Below, piece after piece: positions 105-32,151 of a stretch of 64,000 bases of DNA. How positions within the stretch are numbered: the first letter of the stretch is position 1; every line of letters begins with the position of its first letter. The position numbers were made by a program, and so were the translations under genes. The notes beneath the pieces were generated by a model that ran no database searches, was not told where the DNA came from, and saw only the letters and a list, made by a program, of their open reading frames with translations. This stretch comes from Balanoglossus misakiensis (lineage: Eukaryota > Animalia > Hemichordata): positions 8,377,573 to 8,441,572 of the forward strand of contig CM082594.2 of assembly GCA_040954595.2 (NCBI GenBank), written 5' to 3'.

Positions 105-222
105 AATTGCAGATAAGTTCCTGGCTCACCTACAAATTTTAATTAATTTTTGTTCAATTAATGGACTTTCAGAAGCAACAGCAACAACAGTGACCATGAT
201 GATGACCGTTACGAAAATGAAG

Positions 223-308
<86 letters not shown>

Positions 309-338
309 GTTGTTGCTGGTGGTGGTAGTGGTGGTGGA

Positions 339-406
<68 letters not shown>
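223..406. repeat. Compound inverted trinucleotide microsatellite: (ATC)~28, a (GTT/GGT) spacer, then (GAT)~22
   Basis: Directly visible: ATC run 223..308 and GAT run 339..406. It generates the poly-I/M/H/D ORFs at 91..594. Confidence 0.97.
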
Positions 407-407
<1 letters not shown>

Positions 408-665
408 TGAGTACTCCTATATCAAGTACATCACATGTAGTAACATGCCGGTTAAGATATTTGACCCCGCCCCCTATCCCCCCCCCCCCCCCGATCAACG
501 TACGTACGTTGAATGTAAAGAAATAGTCGTTGTTTTCACATTTAAATTACTTGATCACTTCGTAGAAAACAATCTGTTACTTTACCAACTTTGAAAGATT
601 CGAACTATAGCGACGATCGCTTCCTGACACCGATCATCATGTCACGATCACGCTGAAAACAATGT

Positions 666-1617: not shown

Positions 1618-3095
1618 ATGGCCAAGTTCCGTAACAACGTCATCCCCAATGCCCATTTCCATAAGGACTGGCAAAGGAGGGTGAAAACATGGTTCAACCA
1701 ACCGATGAGAAAGGTTCGCCGTAGGAATAACCGTATTAAGAAAGCACGAAAGATTGCACCTCGACCAGTCGGCGGTCCACTTCGCCCCATCGTTAGGTGT
1801 CAAACTTTTAAATACCACACGAAAACCAGAACTGGACGTGGCTTCTCATTGGAGGAATTGAAGGTTAGTAACGTTTGTATGTATGTTCAGCTGAAACAAC
1901 CACGAAATCCTTCACATATGTACTCAATTTTTTGCCAAAAGCATGTTTTAAAGTGTAATTTCTCATTGGGTTAAATTTCCAGGCTGCAGGGATCTACAAG
2001 AAATATGCGCCAACAATCGGCATCTCAGTGGATCACAGGAGGAGAAATAAATCAACAGAGTCTCTTCAAGCCAACGTACAAAGACTGAAGGAATATCGTT
2101 CCAAATTGATTCTGTTCCCCAAGAAGGCAAGCCAGCCCAGAAAGGAAGACAGCAAGGTTGGTCAAACTCTCTTTTACAACCCGTGTGTGCTTCTGTCCGA
2201 GATGCCTGTGATATTGAATCACAGGCTCTCCTGATGGTGTGTGCAATGTTAGTCAAAAATGACTCTGGCAATGTTCCTGTAATACAGGAACTTTGATCAG
2301 TGTATTGTAATGTGTATTTAGTACGGCCAGCATGTTGTCAGCAGTCTTTAATTTAGCTCGCAAGCGCTTTTTTGCCGGGTGCGGGCATTTTCACCGACAC
2401 ACAAGAGGAGAGAATAGTTTGAGAAGTCAGTCGGCGTTTATCGTTAGTGCACAGCTATTACGTGATCACTTCAGGAAATACAATTCTCGCGTCACGCTTT
2501 TCACGCGACAGAGAGCCAAATATGTTTTCGTAGCTTCGCCCGAAGTAACTTTTTTGAGGTTTTTCGGCTGTAAAGAGAAGTATTTTAAGGTAATTAGTAT
2601 TTTAAAACTTAGTTTATATGATTAAACTTATACAGGCCATTTTTCTCTGAAAATACACACACACTGTAGCTTTAAAGAAATGGTGGTACATGTACTAAAC
2701 ATTTGATCTTCAGAAGCTGAACTTGCACTTGGCCACAAAAGGCAAAGTACCACCACTTTTTGGATTTATTATTCAAAGAGCAAATACCAGCCATAGGAAA
2801 GAAAAGCAAAGTGCTCCCAATGAAGGTTTGAGTTCGAGTACCGAAATTGTAATATTGTCTTCTTTGATGCTTCCAGGAGGAGGAACTGAAGATGGCCACA
2901 CAGCTGTCGGGTCCAGTCATGCCAATCCAGAAGGTGCACAAGAAAGAAAAAGCTCGTGCCATCTCGGACGAAGAGAAGAAACACAGCGTGTTCCAGGCAC
3001 TCCGCATGGCTCGTGCCAATGCCAGGCTATGTGGCATCAGAGCCAAGCGAGCCAAGGAAGCGGCAGAAGCAGCCGCTATGACCAAGAAGAAATAA
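1618..3095 (+). CDS. RPL13: 60S ribosomal protein L13 (eL13), 212 aa
   Basis: Coding exons are 1618..1863, 1983..2156 and 2877..3095 (639 nt), all with GT-AG introns. The translation [29 protein letters not shown]...[14 protein letters not shown]...[30 protein letters not shown].../...[23 protein letters not shown] is unmistakably eL13. AATAAA lies at 3119..3124. Confidence 0.98.
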
Positions 3096-3571: not shown

Positions 3572-5024
3572 TTAATCCACTTTCTTGCTGACGTCCGCTT
3601 TTGACGTTGGCGTCATCGCCCAGGCGAGAGCCACGGCCAAGAAGGGAGCAAACCAGTACACCATAAGATGGTCAAAGAGAGGGTGATTCTCACAGTTGTA
3701 TGTCAGGGCTGTGGCCAGAGCAGGGTTGAACATCATTCCAGTCCATTCCAAACCTGTTGGAAAAATACGTGAGAAACGATTTTAATACTACAGCAATTTC
3801 TAAGACCATAACCGTGACCACTAGCATTTCTTTCTCCAGTCACCTCGGGGACAAAGGCTCCTTTCTCAGCTTCAAAGACTCTACTGTTTTGTCTGTTGTA
3901 CCTGCTTCCTGTCAATTAAAGACACACATTCCGGGAGCATTTCGAAGGCAATCTAAAACTCGGTACTTTCCGAGACTTCCGCGCAGGTAATTAGAGCTGC
4001 GGGGAATTTTGGAAATGCTGGCCTTGACATTGATGAGCGCAAACTCGTGTGTACCTGTCCATCAAATAATTATCCTAGTGCAGTAGGATATGATGCAAAC
4101 CATCTATTCAACTTTGACCCGTTGGTCAACCAATGGTGGTCTACTCATAATTGGTCTGCTGAGCCAATAAACGCCATTCTTGTGGGAGGCAAGCTATGAC
4201 CATGGAGGTAACATGGTGGTAGGTCCACGCTATGACCAACTGAAGTGGTCATTCTCTTGATTAATAATATTCTTTTGTTTGGCAAAATCAGCAAAAAATG
4301 GGACATTCCCTGTACCGTGTATATCATGGAGGTACTAGTACCTCCATGGTGTATATGTACTAATTTGTTCAGCCATTTTATAACAGAGTAAGGTCACTGA
4401 CCGCTCGGTTACATAATAAACTCACTCACCAATGACAATAATGGTGACGGACACTAATGACTCCACATACATGGCGTATCTATCACCGCCAACGTGGACG
4501 TGGATGACCAGTGTGCTAATTAAGGTGGCCAGCATCTCGGCCAACATTCCAGGCACCATGGAAACCTTTAAGGCGGACTGGCATGGCAATGACAGGAGTT
4601 CTGACTTTGCCAAGTGGGTCTCTGACATCGCCAGTTTCCAAAAGACCTTGACGTAGGTCGGGGCGATAAGACCACCCAACAGTTGAGCGGCGATTTTAAT
4701 ATGCCCCCGTATAATGCCCGTACGACGTGCCAACATGTCTTCCCATACGTTGCATACGCATCCCGACCCGTCAAAGGTCAGGGAAAAAGAGACGAATAAG
4801 CAAAAGAGGTAAAAGGCGTATCCGATAATCCCATACGCGTCCAGGATGATGTCTCCTTCCAAGATTCCAGCCACCATCTGGAAAGTTGACAACAGCTCGG
4901 CAGCATATACGTGGTAGCGCAGCGGAAGGAACTTTCTGTACACAGCACGGAGGACATATACCAGAAGTGTCGTTACAGCCACGAAAACCACACAGGCAGG
5001 GCAAGTTGGGAGAACCAACATCAT
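3572..5024 (-). CDS. AQP11: Unorthodox (super)aquaporin, AQP11/AQP12-like, 258 aa
   Basis: Exons are 5024..4430 and 3753..3572 (phase-1 intron, 777 nt). There are multiple hydrophobic segments with AELLSTFQ and AEMLAT motifs. Exon 2 reads GLEWTGMMFNPALATALTYNCENHPLFDHLMVYWFAP...SKKVD*, carrying the NPAxxxxxxxxC signature of AQP11/12. A minus-strand AATAAA lies at 3456..3451. AQP11 versus AQP12 cannot be resolved (probably a pro-orthologue). Confidence 0.9.
4317..4356. mobile_element. DNA-transposon footprint: 24-bp perfect palindrome with an 8-bp target-site duplication (P-element-like)
   Basis: GTGTATAT (4317..4324) + CATGGAGGTACTAGTACCTCCATG (4325..4348) + GTGTATAT (4349..4356), inside the aquaporin intron. 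Confidence 0.7.
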
Positions 5025-7394
5025 GGAATGTTGCTAGGCCAAATCTCCACGAGAAAAGTCCGTGTAACTCCAAAAACTGCTCGTATATTAACTGTCGATT
5101 GTTATCGGCGTTGTCAATGTGTGCCCTGGACAGCAAGGGTGTTGTGACAATGCTGCATTCTAGTGCCATAAATAATGGTACCAGCTATTGTATTAAAAGT
5201 ATACGTATGCAAAACACACGGGATGACGAACGTACGAAGGCTATTTTTACATTCCTTTACCAGGGTGGGGTGTTGTATTACAGGGTCATCAGATGAGCTA
5301 CCAGGCTTGATGAGCTCCTGTACTCTATGGCAGTCGCTGTGCCTGTCGTTGAGGAATGGAACTTTCGTCCTTCCTACGATTAGCGTCCCCTCCACAGGAC
5401 GTTCCATACGTAACCACGGTAACGCGGACGCGCATTTCAGTATCATCAGTCTCGGAGCAAGACTAGATGAGAGCTCCTGTATATCGCTGAGCCTTTACGG
5501 CGACATACAAAGTTAGTTAGGCCTAAATATCAGATCTTTCAAAAATTAACGTGTTTCTTCATTTTGGCTCAATAGTTTAAACTATTATTTTTCGTGGATG
5601 TTTGGTAGAATGGAGGATTCGCCCCCCCCCCTCACTTGGTAGCGCAACTGTCCCGACTTCTTGTGGAAATTCGGGTGGTGGCTTCAAACCAATTTGAGGG
5701 GAAATGGCCAGGGGAAGGTGTGGGGGTGATCGTATTTTTTTCCAACAGTAACAGTGGTACACATTTTTACGTGGCAACGCCCTCATCGGACAGGTAGCCG
5801 CTCTCCGCGTTACTGTGGCCAATTTGCATAGGTGACCGTTTACCTCGGGCTTTAAAATCTTAGATGAATGTATTTTTTCATGCTTCTATGAATGGTCCTA
5901 GGTGCCCACATCTTTTTACTTTTTTTCGGTACATGTATCTTTTCCCCGCTTTCCCTCCTTCCCAATGCATGTAATTCGGTATGCTTTAAAATTAGGATGA
6001 AGTCCGCCAATGGTGGAAAGGTAGATCACAGACAACCTCTTCGCGCTCTGTTTGTAACACACAGACTGAAACAAAGATGTAGGCTTCCCAGGGCAGCATT
6101 GTCAAGGATTTCCACTTCGTTCTTTCTGGTTATTTGCCGTCTATGTAAAAAATGTGGGACGTGTAGAATGTTGGTAGTCTTTCTCTCGCCTCAAGATGAT
6201 CCATAGAAAGTTCACAATCGTAAACAAATGTGCCCCGTAAGGAGTTTCATATTAAATGCATATTGTTTTCTATTTTACCACCATAATTTGGTTCAAATCT
6301 ATTTTTTGGCTATGGTAAAGTTCGCCGCCAACTTTCACTTTTCTCCATTTTTGTAGTACTGGTATTACAACATGCAGTTCGAATTGTGGGGCAAAACTTG
6401 TAAACTTCTTACACCTCTTTCAGTTTATTCCGGAAACGCAACGGAATACGCCGGTGTAGTTGCGTTCTTTTTTGTAACCAGAGGAGTGACAAAGTACAAA
6501 AGTCCGGCGGCCGGTTGGGTTTGTATTTCCAAGTGCATGTATGCAACAAAGAACAGACATCTGTTGTGTGCATAAGAACATATGTGACAAGCAATTAAGT
6601 TAACAGTGTGCATGGCATTGGCTAATTACATTCAAATGGTTATTTCAAGTTACTGGTGGAGAAATTGTGGTGAGAAATTTGTTATTGTTCAAAATCCGAT
6701 GAACAAGGTTTAGTTTCTTGTGGGTTACCTTGGTCTGTTCCCGCTTCATCCCCAAACCTCTGTGCGTGTGTGGTCTGATGTTAAGTGTGGTGCCAAACTT
6801 TGTACGAATCGTGAATACTTCGTGGACTGTCAAAAAAAGACGGTGTTGAAATTACGTAAATTAACTGTTTATCAAATGAAATTGAATCGATGGTTGGAAA
6901 CTGACAAAAATCCACGCGAAAAAATTCTCCCATCCGATTTTTTGATGGATTTTTTGATGGATAGTGAGGGTGTCGGTCTATAGTAAGTGCAGTCGTGTGG
7001 ATTTGTGAGTCGACGTTATTGTGAAATGGTGACGGGGCGGTCATTGCCGGTGTTCAAATTACTTGTCAGTGAATGTGTAAAGTTAATTTACACACAAAAA
7101 GCGTAGTTTACAACTTCAAAGGTCAACACAAGCATGATTGATAAGTTTAATACTGTAGTTTCGTGTTCAAATTCTTGAAGCATGGTGAAATGCCCAGCAG
7201 TTTGCTTATCAATACAACATATATGTATATAGTCAACCTTGCTAAAAGTTACAGCTAATGTCCCTTTAAATACTTCAGCGTAAAAAAAATTAATTTTACG
7301 GATAAATTAATCTAAACGAGGTTTAACTGCAGGGATCTTATTGCGTTTGACCTATATTTTTGGCATCCTAGAACTTTTCACTCTGTGAGATGTG

Positions 7395-10163: not shown

Positions 10164-10269
10164 TATAAATTGGGGGACAGCTCCAGCAGTCCGTCAGGTT
10201 CTCCTTGGCTTCGTTCCAGTCCGACCCAACCGAGCGAATATACCTGGATCGTCTCCAACTGTTCGAAAG
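10164..10269 (+). promoter_or_regulatory. Putative TATA promoter and non-coding first exon of the collagen-resistin gene
   Basis: TATAAAT at 10164..10170, an Inr-like TCAGGT about 30 nt downstream, and a strong donor AAG|GTAAGA at 10269/10270. The ATG-containing exon has its own acceptor (ttttttacttgcag, ending at 10683), which implies an upstream UTR exon. Confidence 0.55.
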
Positions 10270-10700
10270 GTAAGACGGTGGTTCTTGTACATACAAATGT
10301 TGTTACTTGTAGAGTGTTGTATACTTTGTCAACCGCAAGCCGTGTTCTCTGCGCTACAGTTTTGAAATCGTGAAGTGTTTTGGCTGCGTGCCACACTCTA
10401 CACCCACTCATTTTGCCGTCTCTTCCAAATATAGCAGGTTTAAAAAAGGAAAGGAATTTCTTTATTCGTACCAAAGATAAACAGATCTTTAGTAAAAAGA
10501 GTCAAACGACTTTCTGATTCTTTGATTGGGTTTTCATTCCAACAAAGCAAGTAGTAAACGACGCAAAGGGATGTTTTCACATAGATCTAGCCGCCGCAGG
10601 ATACAAAAAAGTTACAAGATGAAGTTATACTATCTTCCATATCTCACAAATCACGCATTGACGCCCTGTTTTTTTACTTGCAGGACTAAACACTGAAATC

Positions 10701-12731
10701 ATGTTTAAGATACTGTTTTTGGTCAGTTCTCTGTTGCTGGTCTCACCGGCTTTTGCCTCCGGGTATTACGCCCAAGCACTGCAGGTAGGCTAAATCCGTC
10801 CATCGATGTAAAATGTCAAATTTTTCACCATCACTCGAAATTTTTCACTGTACTTTCCCGATATTCGCTTAAAATGATGCCGACACAAATTAGATCGGTT
10901 GGCCGTTTTACACGTCACTGTAACTTGCGTTCATAATTGAATTTTCCGCAAAACCTTGTCAGTGAACTGATTTCCCCTCTCTAAATTTCTTTCCACATAT
11001 TTCACGGAACGCCACAGAGAGACTGCGCAGGTAAGCACACCTTTTTACGTGAAAAGATTATGACTTCTGCAGCAAATGTCGCAATGCAAAAAAATATTGA
11101 ACCTTGATTTCGTTTTGGAAAACGTACTTCTAAAACTTGAGACTGAAATTCCAATAGGCGATGCAAAAGCAACGCGTGTTGGTTGACTCCATCAAGCATG
11201 ATTCGAATGCATTGTGACCGGAATCTTGTCATTTCTTTGCAGCCGCTATCAGAGATCTAACATGCATGCAGTGTCCAGGACAGCCTGGTCCGGCCGGTCG
11301 TGATGGAGCCCCCGGCGAACCTGGAAAGGATGGCGAGAGGGGATTCCCAGGTCAGTAATCACGGGTAACAATTCCATCAGTGACTGCATATGATAGACAA
11401 CTGCAGACTCAAAATTGATGTAAAGGACTGGTTCAAAGACATGAATTTTACGTCGGTAGATTGTACTGAAGACAGGTGGTACTGTCTGACCCAGGATCGC
11501 CGAAACTAAAATCATTCAGGCCTTGTGTGTATTGCAATATACAACGAATGATTCGGTTCTCTATAACACTCTTCTCCCCCCCCCCCTCCACCAGGACCTC
11601 AAGGACCACAGGGCGAACAGGGACCACAGGGCGAATCCATTGTCGGACCACAGGGAGAGCAAGGCGAGAAGGGAGATCAAGGCGAAGCGGGTCCCAAAGG
11701 ACCACGTGGTATCCCCGGACCAGCTGGTCCCCAGGGACTGCAAGGTATGACATCATTGCTTCAGTCTGGTCGTTTTTTTTTTGGTTTATTTATATTTCAA
11801 TAAAAGCCGGGGGGAGCCAGTCCCATTCACAGGCTTCAAAAGCCACAAATAAAACCACAACACGTTAAAATGAAGACAGAAATATAAACTATAACTCTGA
11901 CAGTGTTAGGGTGTGAATACTAACATAGATAATTTGCATGGTCGTTTTTACAGGACCACAGGGCTTCCAAGGAGAGCAAGGTGAACCAGGTAAGAAATTG
12001 GTAACTTGAAATTTGGAGCTTAGAGGGTACCTTAGAGAGATAAATGTATCGTCGATTCTGGTGCAGAAAGGAGGTGCGAGAATTTACTGCTGTTTAAGAG
12101 CGCCTGTGGTTTTAACCAACAGAAAATACACCGTTTTAATACTTCCACATCAACATAAGCCAACAGCAAGACATTTGACAACAACGATCTGCTCTTTCTT
12201 CCAGGTGAACCAGGTCTACCAGGTGCTCCAGGCCCAGCTGGTTTGAACGCACCAAAGACACAGTTAACATGTACCACCGTTAACGCCGATTCATATGCTG
12301 TACGCTGTCCCGCAGGTGAGGATTGCAACCTTAGATCTTGGCCGGGGGGGGGGGGGGGGTCAAAATGGCTGCTGTGGATCATGCGCCCTCAAACGGTCGA
12401 TTTAAACAGTCAAACATTTACTGGTTACTATGTGAACCCACGCACTGACACTGGTGGAGTTATTGGGATGGGTGGAGATATGCCACATTAATCGTCTTTT
12501 GCTGGAAATGATGACATTTTAGAGTGGTTTGTTAAAATCTATTACCTGGATACGTCACACCTTACCAAATTACATCTTGTCTTTTTTATTCTACCAGGCT
12601 TCTCACTTGTCGGCTGCACGTGCCATGGATGCCCTGGTTCTGAATACATGACCAATGATAACGTATGCCAGTGTAATTGCAAAGCTGTCCGAGAAGCCGA
12701 GGGCCGCTGCTGTTCAACTTCCATCAACTAA
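10701..12731 (+). CDS. Secreted short-chain collagen with a C-terminal resistin/RELM-like cysteine-rich domain, 211 aa
   Basis: Coding exons are 10701..10784, 11018..11030, 11243..11350, 11595..11744, 11954..11989, 12205..12315 and 12598..12731 (636 nt, open frame, all GT-AG). The protein has a signal peptide [19 protein letters not shown], then [16 protein letters not shown], 33 Gly-X-Y triplets, and the C-terminus [67 protein letters not shown] lies at 12841..12846. Confidence 0.9.
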
Positions 12732-13179
12732 GTCATCATCTGCCTTGGAATTTCTGCGCCCACTACGTCCAACAACGGGCAGCCACACAGTGCCATTTTT
12801 TATCTTACCTCATAATTTGCATAACAATGCCAACAGATGAAATAAATTATAGGATGCATAGGTTAGAATATCCATAGTCTTCGACTTTCTTTAAAAACTG
12901 CAGTTGGACCGTGTATGTAGACCTTTATTTTTATCCGTACGTCATCTCATGCAGGAAGTCCTCGTTCTATCGATCCGAGTCAGGGAGTTTGACATTCCAT
13001 GTGAGATTTTATTATGTTCATTCAAGAACGACCACCAGTTGACGTAGTGTTTCCATTTTTACGTTTAGTTTATGACGTTTTAGCATAGCGGGTAGAAGTC
13101 GACACAAATTGTCGTTCCCACTGGTGTCGTGTAGTTAGTGGTGTTTGTCAGACGCTAGCATTTTTCACTTGTATGACTT

Positions 13180-13800
13180 GGCTGTATGGACAAGACATAA
13201 ATAAAGATCTACATATTCTACAACTTAAAATCGGATCTTCGCTGTCTTTATTTTTAATCCATTTTATTCTCAGTAAAGTGGACGTCTTTCACTCGATATA
13301 TGGTATATTGTCTGTTACCTCAGTCTATAGTAGACTATCAAAATTCTGTTTTCCTCAATCTACCAATATATCCCATCATGACATCACGTGGACAATACGT
13401 AGTCTGCGTGTTCAAAATTGTATTGACACTGCCATAATGAGATTCCATTATCGGAACAACATGTGTTACATCCATTTACTTCAATATTGAAATATGTTCT
13501 ATCAATTGATCCAAATGTATGCAGAGTTAATCTAAATTTCATGATCTTACCATTAACAGTACCAGACAGTGACATCTCGGCTATCAAAACATTTCATTGT
13601 TACTGTTTGATTTTTAAAAAAAAATTATGAATGTGTACTGAGTTTGTTCGCCAGTAATCCGATCGACGTGTGGCATACATTCAAAACAAAACTTGGTTTG
13701 GTGTAATTTTCTTGCCTACTCCATTGTTTGTCTCCATCCAGTTAATGATTACGTAATGTCTGAACATGGATATGCACGCATGGTCTGACTAAATCGATTC
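13180..13800 (-). mobile_element. Possible highly decayed LINE endonuclease fragment
   Basis: The frameshifted minus-strand pieces 'WIK...' and 'DLYLCLVH' resemble the W.KL....DLY.C..Y segment of APE-type endonucleases. Many stops; weak. Confidence 0.2.
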
Positions 13801-14557: not shown

Positions 14558-17500
14558 ATGGGGGACTCGTCGGATTCAGGCCAAGTGTGGGGTTACAACG
14601 AAGATGGTACGTATCGCACAGCTATATTCATGATTATTCATTTTACATCCATTTCGAATGCGTTAGCGCTGGTGATATGGTATCGTATTGTTAAAGAACT
14701 GGCCTGTCTCTCACTGCTGTTTGACTGCTGTCATGTCACCATATGAAAAGCTATTTCCATGGTAACAAGTGATGTTCAGTTTTATCTCTGTGCTAGTCTC
14801 AGAATATTTTCATTGTGAACCCATGGTTGTGTTACATCTCGGTAGACAGCACACAGTTTGCAGGCGAAATTTTGCTCATCGGAGCTCACAGACGGATGAA
14901 GTAATTAATTCCGTCGTCACGCTACCTTGATCATTCCCATCAGGCAAATGTGACGTTGAGACAGCGTTTACTAGCTAAACATCTTACCAGTGTTCTAGCA
15001 ACAAGCTGTGCGTCACCTAAAATGAATGCGGACATCAATTTTCCATCAGCGGCTATATAGTCCGTGTCAAACGTGGATGTACATTGTACCACACTTTCTG
15101 TTGTACATCCGTGCAGTCTCAAAGCACCTTCCTTCATCAATGAAAGAAGGCCATCAATTATACTAAAGAAAGCCGAATACAATAGCCAACAGATGACGCC
15201 ATCAACACGTCCGTATACTAGAAGTAGGCACACAACATACAATGCTCGAATAAAGTGGTCGTTTGACAGTTTACAGCCTTGAGAAACAGGCCATTTTTGG
15301 GGGAAGTTTCACATTCCGTCGGGTACACAGTCGTATGCTGTTACCCGCATGATCAGTCAAGATGATGTACATACAACCCGCATTCGCTGTCGTTAATATC
15401 AATTTACGGCGCCATATTGCATTAAATTCGGTACCGGTTAAATCCTTACCAAGTAAATAATCAATTGCATAATTTTCAACGCGCGGTGGTTATTGTAAAT
15501 ACGTGTTGAAATAAATCTTGTTGAATAATATTGATCATTAGGCACACATCATCGTCCCGGGCCTAAGATCTTGGTTGATTCACATTACTTGTTGCAAAAA
15601 TCAACAAGAAATATAATAGAATTTTCCAAGAAGGTTAAGAGATTGATTTATTTTCCTGAAGATTCAGGAAATTTTAATTTCGGCTAAATGACATTTATAT
15701 ATATTTATAGCATAGACAATGACAATGAAACGCTCAGTTATGATTTCGTGCACCATTCCGATTTTTCAACAATTTATAAATTGTAGGGATTCATGAATCG
15801 TTTCATATAACCTGTATGGAACGAATCACGAATCAATTTCCTGTCTTCTCGTATCAGCGTGTCCCTCGAGGCCAATTTTTATTTCGTTTTTGTGAGTGAT
15901 GAATACCACGGGAACAGTATGATATGCAAACCTTTCCATATTCACCAAGAAGCATATGAGTTACTATTTATAACGTAACAAAAACATGGTAGATATGTAA
16001 ATCATTCTCTGAGGTAGCAGTTAATATTACCGTTACTATGGGCTTGACTGTTGCTGTATTTCTAATTTTCTGGCTCTGTTTATTTTTTACTAGGCGCGTC
16101 AGAATGGGGAATCCTTTTCCCTGAAGCCAACGGAGACTGCCAATCGCCAATCAACATCAACTCCCGCGAAGCCGTCTTCGATGGCGGCCTGAACGAACCT
16201 CCTCTAGTCACCAACTACATCGTTTGCCGTGAATGCGAGTTCATCAACAACGGACACGCTATACAAATCGTGTTCAAATACAAAACAGGTAAGACATCCA
16301 CCGGTCCAGTAGACTCTATAATTTTGCAGGGATTAGATCATTATGTAGACGGGAATATCTGTCGCTCGAGGGCGCTCTCCCAAGGGAACGGCGGAGACCA
16401 GTCCAATTATATAATATGCTTCTGTATGAAAATACCACAAGCGGCTTAAATCGCACAAATGCACCATTCATCCAACTATTTCCAATCAAATAAGAGGGGA
16501 AAACTTAAAAATCTGAACTGTTTTTTGTCAAACAGACGCAAATAATTCATCAACACTTTCTGTACTGACTCAGGAGAGCAGGATTACGCTTAAACATGCA
16601 ATAATAATCATTCTGTAGTGCACCGAAATTTTGTAATTCCTTCCATGTGATTCTGAATTTTATGAGATCAAATAGCGAAACGTGTCCTTGATGAGGGCGC
16701 TATCAACGTCACCGGTCATGGCTATAGGCTGACTGACGTTATCTCATGTAAATTCACAAAACAGTCGCGTTTCTTTCATCCGTAGTCAAGGTAACCCCTG
16801 ATACACGTTGTATGTCATCGTTCCACAAAAGTAACGTTGTTCAAGTCCGTGTGTATTAAATTTGCATGAACATTAGTGACCTGTCTATAAAGGCCAATTT
16901 TAAAGTCCTTTGACTGGCCGCTACAGAAGGTTAGACTTTAGTTGTAATAACCAGGCGTCGTCATCTCTTTAATTTTTGTGTAATAAGCTTTAATCAAGTA
17001 TCGGCTATGTATAGGAACAGCCACATTATGACCGCCGTTCAATCAATATCGATATTGAAAGTGTTAATTCTTGGGGTTAATTCTCTGCCTCGACAACACA
17101 ATGCACCCAACAAAGGCTGTTATAGGTTCCATCAATCCGCATATCCAATATATGTCATAATGTTTTGACATATAATTAGCAATAGCTTTTCATTTGGTGT
17201 TGGCAAGCATATGAATATAATAGGATTACAGAACGCCCTGCGGAGCTAATACGACGACAATAAATTGCCGGCAAAATATCATAAACCTGAGCTGAAAGAA
17301 AAGTCCGCTATATTTCTTTGCTAATTTATTCAGTTTCCTTCACTATATGTTGCATTTTTATCTTGTCAATAAATTGTATATTGTGAAGGCTACATGTAGT
17401 AATAAATGATTTTAGCGCTACTGGTTACGATCACGACGGAATATTAATTCCTGTTGAAATTTTCTTAATTACGGCTGATACGAACCAATATATTAAACTA

Positions 17501-29500: not shown

Positions 29501-32151
29501 GCATAATCACGGGTTGTGATATCATTCATTCTGGATAGGTGACTGAACTCTAGTGCTCTAAAAGGAGCGAGGATGTGCATGTATTTAGAAGTTCATGTCA
29601 CAGATAGGCTAAACTAATTCCCACGTCTTCGCCTTACTGTTCTTCGACAAGCCAACAAATTAATGCTAAAATGGGCCAACTGTCACTTATTTCGCACTGT
29701 CAAAAAAAATCCCCGTATATTCCCCTGTACGAGTCTTTAGAATACGGGCGATTTAAGAAGACGAATTTCAACCGCTCTGTCACGAAGTTTGACAAGTTCC
29801 AAATGTCAAGAAGGCTTTCTTTTCGAGATAACGCGATGCTATCCAAATGCATATCGGAGTCTCACGTCAACGACTGGCAGGAAAAATGTACAAGTGCGTG
29901 ACCCATTGACCTCTAAGTAGAGATTATGTCAGATGCTAAAATTGAACATATTTGCACCATCAGGATCACAGCACAACCTGGAAATCCCCGTTTCTTTCAC
30001 CTACTAAACCAGATCCTTTGAGTGTCTCAGATCTTTCTCTCAACCAGTGTTGAAAAGTACTGGTCTTATAGAACATTAGAGGTAAAGATTTGCCGGTGTC
30101 AATGTTTGCAACTCATTTTGCTCGGTTGGTTGACTCGAGACGTTTTGATGAACTCAAAAAGTCGTCGTGTTACACAATTATACAATCATATGTAATCTTA
30201 GAGACCTGCAATATGCAGCGATTCTATTTTATCTTAAAAGAAACCGCAGCATCCAGTGAAAAACACACATCTGAACTTCGTAAAGAACTTGTCGTCGTGG
30301 TGTAAGTACAGCTGCGTATCTGTTTCGGCAACTCTCCAAACCAGACGGCGATCAATTGAACGTCTTCAAACGCCAGAATACAAACTTTGTTGAAAACACC
30401 AGAAAACACTCAAGGCCGCGAAGGGACCACAACAAAGTTCTTGGGAACATATCGACTTTCTGATTAGTCAGTCAGTCACGGTTGAGTGGCCAGTACTCAC
30501 AATTAGGGACCGCATCTTCCGGGTGTTCCCGCCCTTTTAAATTTGTAACCGTCATCACCTCAACAGTCGCTATAATTGAGATTTATGAAGTGTCAATAGG
30601 CAGCTTTAATTGTGCCTGCAGTTTCTCAAACTGGAAAAAGGACAGAGAGTTGTTTGAGGGTACAGACAGGTACATTCAAATTCTTAATAATGATGCCATT
30701 AGACTAAATGGAACTGGGAGAAAGGTGATGTTACAAAAGAAACATTTAAGTATGATAGAAACCATATACCTCTTGAGCAAAACTGTCTTGTCACCTGTGT
30801 ATCGTCGGAAAACAAAAAAATTGCAGGGTAGCACCGCATTTCAGGAGGGCTTAATAAGAAGTAGACACTTGATTGTACTGAGAAAAAATGTGCCTTGCAA
30901 TTCAGAGGCAAGTTAATTAGGCAAGTGACGACGTAACATGGGTATATCTTCAGATGGCGGGATGATTCGCATGTCTTGGGGTAGTCAGGTTTATCATCGG
31001 GGAAACTCTTTGCAGACACTTGAGTGAGGAATCTTAGACATTCCGTAAGTGATCGCAGACGTCACCCTGAATGGATCGAGTCTGGTTGGGAAACATCTGA
31101 GGTATAACAGACCCAAGATATTTAAATTGAGCGGCTACTAAGCATGACGAGGCACCAACTTGTGGGAAAAAAGTATCACAAGTTTCTTGAAGGTCCGAGG
31201 ATTTTTCTCTGAATGCCGTCAAAGAAGGAAATGTGTTATGAAAGAAGAGAATCGCCAAGTGTAAAAGAACATTTTGTCGAAAACAGATTTCAGATCAGAG
31301 AAATTATCATTGCATCGACTAAAATTAAGACTTTATAAGCTAGAACCTTGAAAATTGTTGACTTTGTAGGCTGTATAACGTAAGAACCACGATTTTTCGG
31401 CAAGAACCATGATTTTTCGGTAACCACGGCTATGCATGAAACTGCCTATCTAAGAACCTTGATGATATGAGAGAGCTATAGAGCGGTAATTGTAAATTTT
31501 TAATGAGAAATTATCATTGTTTTCTCTTAATTTTTTTTTCTTAGACCCTGCACTGCGAGACTTTTGGACATACGGCGGTTCGCTGACGACTCCGCCATGC
31601 TGTGAGAAGGTCACGTGGATCCTTTTCCGGTACCCACTAACGATATCACATTCACAGGTATGTCATGTTTATCATTTTGATGCTTGGTACGCGCTTGAAA
31701 ATATCCTAATAGAAAGTGTATTGATAGGTAAAACACGTTTTACCACTGTTTGTTTCCAAATCCAGTTAGAACGAGTTCTTTTGCCATATTTGAACTTGAA
31801 GCCAAGTTCTATTTGCGACGTACGGTTCTATAAATTATTAAAGATCACAGATAGTCTCGCATTTCAATGTATATGCATACTTTGCTGATATATCCAGACA
31901 GCGTGACGCTGTCATAGGGGAGTAGAGCAGAAATTGGGGTTCATATACTGCACCAAAACACTGAAAAACATGGCAAAATGTTACAGCCGCTGTCCCTGTG
32001 TTAATTTGATTGGTAGATGGAAGAATTTCGGCGCCTGCGCACACATCACAAGGGGGAAACTCTAGCACACGGCGAAGATGGAATATTGGCGGATAACTTC
32101 CGGCCAACCCAGCCTCTCAACGAGAGAGTGATACGAGCGTCCTTTTTGTAG
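14558..32151 (+). CDS. CA8: Carbonic anhydrase-related protein VIII (acatalytic alpha-CA), 275 aa
   Basis: Exons are 14558..14606, 16094..16288, 18585..18709, 27321..27416, 27647..27709, 28089..28140, 31545..31657 and 32017..32151 (828 nt, open frame). Motifs: [99 protein letters not shown]. The Zn ligand His94 is replaced by Arg as in vertebrate CA8. AATAAA lies at 32912 and 32927. Confidence 0.96.
26226..26283. repeat. (CACT)n tetranucleotide microsatellite followed by a C/T-rich tract, in CA8 intron 3
   Basis: About 14 directly visible CACT units with one G substitution. It causes the SLTH-repeat ORFs. Confidence 0.95.
30463..31260 (-). mobile_element. Decayed, 5'-truncated non-LTR retrotransposon (RTE-like RT fragment) in CA8 intron 6
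   Basis: Minus-strand translation gives [11 protein letters not shown]...QFKYLGSVI (the LINE RT FKYLG motif), then in another frame [15 protein letters not shown] (like the RTE 'KLKIY...V...L' segment). It ends in a short (TGAC)3 tail at ~30478..30465. Confidence 0.45.

Follow-up and report, generated by a model that had tools for sequence, protein, structure and literature searches.

A predicted secreted protein joining a collagen stalk to a probable resistin head in an invertebrate genome

Introduction

The locus described here raises the question of whether a resistin head can be carried on a collagen stalk in an invertebrate and, if so, what such a protein might do. In the available portion of a survey of 116 vertebrate genomes (PMC4467842), the resistin gene (Retn) was present in 84 of them and absent from the fish and birds examined. 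The gene was limited there to tetrapods and the coelacanth, no invertebrates were examined, and the origin and ancestral function of resistin were left open.

The locus lies in a stretch of 64,000 nucleotides of Balanoglossus misakiensis DNA, which is referred to as the window. An initial annotation had proposed that seven exons at this position encode a collagen-stalked protein with a resistin head, and had put it forward as a candidate new class of secreted defence collagen.

Gene structure

Seven coding exons were assembled on the plus strand between positions 10701 and 12731. Every intron boundary is of the GT..AG type and the joined exons give 636 nt, corresponding to 211 amino acids and a stop codon, as first proposed. 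The features of the gene and its flanks are:

10164..10170, plus strand: candidate TATA box, approximately 100 nt before a strong donor
10195..10269, plus strand: probable non-coding first exon, flanked by a strong donor (10270, score 7.1) and followed by a strong acceptor before 10684 (score 8.6); its start is placed from the candidate TATA box
10701..10784, plus strand: coding exon 1, predicted signal peptide (about amino acids 1-19) and start of the N-terminal segment, followed by a phase-0 intron
11018..11030, plus strand: coding exon 2, a micro-exon of 13 nt encoding Cys31
11243..11350, plus strand: coding exon 3, Cys40, Cys43 and the opening collagen triplets (Pfam Collagen E 1.3e-4, under the cut-off)
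11595..11744, plus strand: coding exon 4, collagen in which two residues interrupt the run after triplet 13 (Pfam Collagen E 5.7e-8, 32.9 bits, over the cut-off)
11954..11989, plus strand: coding exon 5, four collagen triplets
12205..12315, plus strand: coding exon 6, last part of the collagen, then the linker and head cysteines 1-2, followed by a phase-1 intron after Cys-Pro-Ala-G (no Pfam match for this exon on its own)
12598..12731, plus strand: coding exon 7, the other eight head cysteines with the stop codon, 134 coding bases
12841..12846, plus strand: candidate polyadenylation signal, with a second one at 13200

Splice sites were scored with a generic splice matrix with hand-set frequencies. 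On this scale the six donors of the model were the top six of the 119 GT sites in the span, and five of its six acceptors ranked within the top six of the 121 AG sites, which bears out the proposed exon structure. The top-ranked acceptor outside the model sits just before the start codon and, together with the donor at 10270, it points to the probable non-coding first exon. As 75 matches to the TATA motif occur in the window, where they are common, a role for the candidate TATA box is suggested only by its position. The first intron of the coding model is in phase 0 and the remaining five are in phase 1, and no hidden phase-1 exon scoring above 6 with the same matrix was detected in introns 3-6.

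The acceptor of exon 2 was weak (-3.1) and its donor was joint-best (7.2). This exon was the best among eight frame-keeping candidates, and both a branch-point-like CTGAT and an AG-free, pyrimidine-rich stretch are present upstream of it. Two direct joins that skip exon 2 also keep the frame, both via weak sites. The N-terminal segment is thus the least certain part of the protein.

The weak acceptor of the micro-exon would fit a wrong gene model, or a silent gene, in which the collagen and head exons did not belong to one transcript. Against this, the splice sites are top-ranked, the predicted reading frame contains no stops or frameshifts, and its Gly codons are mixed. In addition, a single frame in exon 6 runs from the final collagen triplets to head cysteines 1 and 2, which makes the collagen-head fusion independent of any guessed junction. 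We regard an error of this kind as extremely unlikely, and the gene is predicted to be real and well formed.

N-terminus and collagen stalk

Hydropathy analysis placed the only hydrophobic segment of the protein at amino acids 1-19, and this segment was taken as the signal peptide because the peak lies there and no later hydrophobic segment is present. Amino acids 22-43 are without Pro or Gly, are compatible with a helix and include Cys31, Cys40 and Cys43, in agreement with the signal peptide and Cys-rich N-terminus initially described. The amphipathy of this segment was borderline (197-350 of 5000 shuffles were equally high).

The initial annotation had given the stalk as (Gly-X-Y)33. The count of 33 triplets was correct, but the run is not uninterrupted, as the collagen (amino acids 45-145) consists of 13 triplets, two extra residues (amino acids 84-85) and a further 20 triplets. 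Fully wound, it would form a rod of approximately 28 nm. The triplets are Gln-rich and acidic, with 20% imino acids, and a linker of 8 residues connects the collagen to the head. The mature protein has an acidic pI of 4.7, the head a neutral one of 6.7. One G-X-K-G-D motif is present in the protein, which we take to be of the adiponectin lysine-glycosylation type.

The ten-cysteine head

The spliced protein reproduced exactly the cysteine spacing reported for the head, C-X11-C-X8-C-X-C-X2-C-X11-C-X-C-X-C-X9-CC. The strict resistin signature (C-X11-C-X8-C-X-C-X3-C-X10-C-X-C-X-C-X9-CC) was not matched; with a tolerance of one residue the head passes, only the fifth cysteine being shifted (X2/X11 versus X3/X10). 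When the head residues were shuffled, none of 7,199,287 shuffles contained the relaxed ten-cysteine resistin pattern, which was chosen post hoc. The last-exon portion of the head pattern, also chosen post hoc, occurred once in the window and in none of 200 window shuffles.

Searched against Pfam, exon 7 alone matched a single family, Resistin (PF06954), at 19.9 bits (E 0.0011), which is under the gathering cut-off of 25 bits. The stop-to-stop frame of the exon, which includes the junction Gly and one intron-encoded residue, reached 27.6 bits (E 4.5e-6). No Pfam match to the PCSK9 family was obtained for exon 7 at E up to 10, and none to C-type lectin, fibrinogen or gC1q heads for the five exons scanned at the same limit. 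Among 177,635 PDB sequences searched at E up to 10, the head had three matches, two of them to resistin constructs and one to RELM-beta, all weak when taken singly (E-values of only 0.04-0.18). The head contains no Trp, and the two Trp common to all three of these aligned vertebrate resistin/RELM-beta chains are replaced.

The peptides encoded by exons 6 and 7 were modelled together, in three copies each. They were predicted to fold together, with a score of 0.87 versus 0.02 for the best of three controls; the runs agreed in at least 98% of contacts, and the partner pLDDT was at least 90. In the benchmarks of this model, 51 of 78 solved microbial pairs attained the pass mark, as did 2 of 108 mismatched ones; for eukaryote pairs the figures were 39 of 65 solved and 2 of 126 unrelated. 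The closest contacts included Cys1-Cys10 and Cys2-Cys9 of the head, presumably the disulfide pairing of resistin. The pass may reflect memory of solved resistins. As the 25 contact pairs listed all fall inside one copy, the model backs the fold and not the trimer. Folded by itself, exon 7 had a pLDDT of 61, and a fold search with this exon 7 model gave a best Z of 2.4, to unrelated chains; the absence of resistin from that list is uninformative, as the query was only half a domain.

An intron shared with vertebrate resistin genes

The intron inside the head is in phase 1 and interrupts the Gly codon that follows head cysteine 2 (Cys-Pro-Ala-G). In the portion of PMC4467842 available (Hu, Tan and Irwin), both coding introns of human RETN and RETNL are in phase I, and in the Chinese alligator, where exon 2 is duplicated, this exon terminates at Cys-Pro-Ser-G, a boundary read by eye from S1 Fig. 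To the extent of these data, the head intron and intron 2 of vertebrate resistin genes coincide in both codon and phase. The 134 coding bases of exon 7 may likewise be compared with partial Retn genes lacking exons 1 and 2, given in the accessible S1 Table of PMC4467842 as mostly 120-133 bp, with one of 180 bp. Under uniform positions we estimate the chance of such an intron match at about 1 in 180, and it would be likelier than this since Gly codons after AG attract introns. An intron in common with vertebrate resistin genes suggests that the family may be much older than the backboned animals.

A Gly codon after CAG is a site of frequent intron gain. The intron is located in such a codon, and could on this account fit a head drawn from a wider family of resistin/PCSK9-type modules, not specifically related to vertebrate resistin and joined to collagen independently. 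That origin is nevertheless very unlikely, given that all ten cysteines are there, that the Pfam matches at E up to 10 included Resistin but no PCSK9 family, and that both the position and the phase of the intron match those of vertebrate resistin as far as the published boundaries extend. The Pfam and PDB matches, the two-peptide fold model and the intron position agree, and for this reason the head is, very probably, a true resistin domain, a strong inference that sustains the identity given to it in the initial annotation.

Neighbouring genes and the window

The other genes identified in the window were an RPL13 gene, an unorthodox aquaporin and a carbonic anhydrase. Their coordinates, and those of one repeat, are:

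190..410: (CAT)n tract and, after it, an (ATG)n tract, together a long imperfect palindrome
1618..3092, plus strand: RPL13, three exons, tail-to-tail with the aquaporin
3572..5033, minus strand: unorthodox aquaporin, two exons, AQP11/12-like by eye
16094..16288 and 31545..31657, plus strand: exons of an alpha carbonic anhydrase gene with a long intron

An exon of RPL13 was most similar to the proteins of hemichordates (Glandiceps 93% identity, Ptychodera 90%, Saccoglossus 85%), ahead of all else among the best 120 of 554 matches. Over all three exons, identity was 82-89% with hemichordates versus 62-77% with 15 other chosen animals. The identities point to an acorn worm as the likely source. 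The RPL13 tree gave no supported resolution among the window sequence, the three hemichordates and the echinoderms. With this neighbour closest to hemichordates, and with the spliced model, the proposed combination of collagen and resistin-type head in an invertebrate stands.

No snoRNA was detected in the RPL13 introns. The second NPA box of the aquaporin is intact, its first is apparently Cys-Val-Cys, and no Pfam MIP match was obtained for it. The carbonic anhydrase exons presumably resemble the non-catalytic CA8 type. The palindrome yields spurious microRNA matches, which are below their cut-offs. No protein-coding exon was recognised at positions 32000-64000 by a long-frame listing and a strong-site exon scan, which small exons could escape.

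The neighbours of vertebrate Retn include STXBP2, MCEMP1 and TRAPPC5, an order already nearly lost in the coelacanth according to the published excerpts available. None of these was among the genes identified in the window.

Relatives and prior description

Searches for homologues used single exons of 38-49 amino acids, with which relatives under approximately 60% identity would be missed. A word search with exon 7 among proteins of 77-2000 amino acids gave no candidate, and neither did the weak search with the exon-6 region among proteins of 60-193 amino acids, despite the common collagen words in that query. With phmmer, exon 7 had no match at E up to 0.001 among 1.84 billion representatives; mouse resistins score just 15-17 bits with this query. 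The ESM Atlas held no usable match for exon 7, a metagenome scan matched 597 stretches of which none was confirmed, and no paralogue was found within the 64-kb window. As each query was one short exon, this lack of orthologue matches does not amount to uniqueness.

Outside the vertebrates, the accessible Table S14 of PMC6214176 counts four Pfam Resistin matches in Nematostella, one in Aiptasia and none in six corals. These sea anemone proteins resemble the present one in having a Resistin match in a non-vertebrate, in a table that gives counts and not architecture. In the literature searched, which covered few subscription journals, no secreted protein combining collagen with a ten-cysteine resistin head was described, and the term 'resistin domain' did not occur together with 'collagen'. 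For resistin in invertebrate deuterostomes, the same literature led no further than the sea anemone counts. Calling the protein a new class, as the initial annotation had done, is too strong, in view also of the tabulated sea anemone matches: it is a known layout bearing a head that is not reported on such a layout in the literature searched.

Possible functions

The protein is predicted to be a secreted resistin homologue with a collagen stalk. By analogy with known families, the leading reading is that it acts as a multivalent, oligomeric defence collagen that binds microbial surfaces. We would give this reading slightly less than an even chance. A helical tail mediates trimer formation in resistin and RELM-beta, and N-terminal cysteines that of hexamers; the collagen of C1q, MBL and SP-A has a hinge at its interruption. 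On the pattern of these families, three chains would wind into the collagen rod of approximately 28 nm with three heads packed at its tip, Cys31, Cys40 and Cys43 could join several such trimers in a bundle, and the arms might splay at the break after triplet 13, which would serve as a hinge as in C1q, MBL and SP-A. The clustered heads could then bind, by avidity, anionic lipids or other repeated microbial features in mucus or body fluid, and the bound microbes would be clumped or tagged. The acidity of the mature protein and the pI of its head do not favour electrostatic attack on membranes.

Several features speak against a direct transfer of resistin or defence function to this protein, namely the cysteine shift, the replaced Trp, the acidic chain, the lack of the motif P-G-K-X-G-P/Y anywhere in the protein, and the lack of a kappaB-type site within 5 kb upstream of the start codon. 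The motif is that through which MBL and ficolins bind MASP.

A signalling ligand similar to adiponectin and the C1q/TNF-related proteins, in which the collagen would set the oligomer size and the trimeric head would bind a host receptor, is also conceivable by analogy, if somewhat unlikely. The acidic protein and its one G-X-K-G-D motif, of the adiponectin type, would suit such a ligand, and in the portions of the literature available TLR4 and CAP1 are among the candidate receptors through which resistin acts in vertebrates. The same partial sources assign to resistin both signalling and direct antibacterial roles, and as the two coexist there, a signalling role would not exclude defence.

In collagens VIII and X, C1q-type domains bring the chains into register and initiate the triple helix. 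A resistin domain that did only this would make the protein a structural short-chain collagen of mucus or matrix, and the Gln-rich, acidic triplets with their 20% imino acids, the N-terminal cysteines available for cross-linking and the head without Trp are all concordant with it. Yet a rod of 33 triplets falls within the size range of soluble defence collagens, and the resistin head of mouse RELM-beta has binding activity itself, according to the excerpts available. A purely structural role appears unlikely to us.

Evolutionary implications

With a hemichordate gene that has both the ten-cysteine head and the shared intron, the resistin family would date back to the deuterostome ancestor. A bolder proposal, which is possible though we think it rather improbable, is that the ancestral resistin had the present form, that the last common deuterostome ancestor already possessed it as a defence collagen of a fourth kind, and that vertebrate resistin derived from it. 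Vertebrate resistin would then have lost a block of symmetric phase-1 collagen exons and retained both the head intron and, for its stalk, the N-terminal cysteine and helix. Were this the case, resistin would have begun as a microbe-binding molecule and acquired metabolic signalling later. The present protein offers a ready test of whether microbe binding is the oldest role of resistin. It would also show that a single type of trimeric head is compatible with a coiled-coil stalk as well as with a collagen one.

Comparison with known systems

With adiponectin and the C1q/TNF-related proteins, the predicted protein shares a small, secreted collagen-plus-head layout, N-terminal cysteines and one G-X-K-G-D motif, whereas its head is not gC1q. 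The likeness to the collectins (MBL, SP-A, CL-11), ficolins and C1q extends to the signal peptide, the short Cys-rich N-terminus, the short, interrupted collagen and the C-terminal globular head. Collectin introns split Gly codons, and those of the present gene do so too. In contrast to these defence collagens, the protein has no coiled-coil neck (the 8-residue linker being in its place) and no MASP-binding motif, and its head is resistin-type and not a C-type lectin, fibrinogen or gC1q domain.

Resistin and the RELM (FIZZ) proteins (PF06954; PDB 1rh7, 1rgx and 1rfx) are secreted, as is predicted here, and have in common with this protein a ten-cysteine C-terminal head, a phase-1 intron after Cys-Pro-X-G and extra N-terminal cysteines usable for links between trimers. 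They differ in size (about 110 amino acids and three coding exons, versus 211 amino acids and seven here) and in host, which is here a non-vertebrate; in the present head the fifth cysteine has moved by one and two conserved Trp are replaced. Their stalk is an alpha-helical coiled coil, whereas that of the present protein is a collagen of 33 triplets. No such coiled coil directly precedes the head here, as amino acids 45-145 are collagen and only amino acids 22-43 are helix-compatible. Because its head is not that of a defence collagen and its stalk is not that of a resistin, the protein was filed under neither family.
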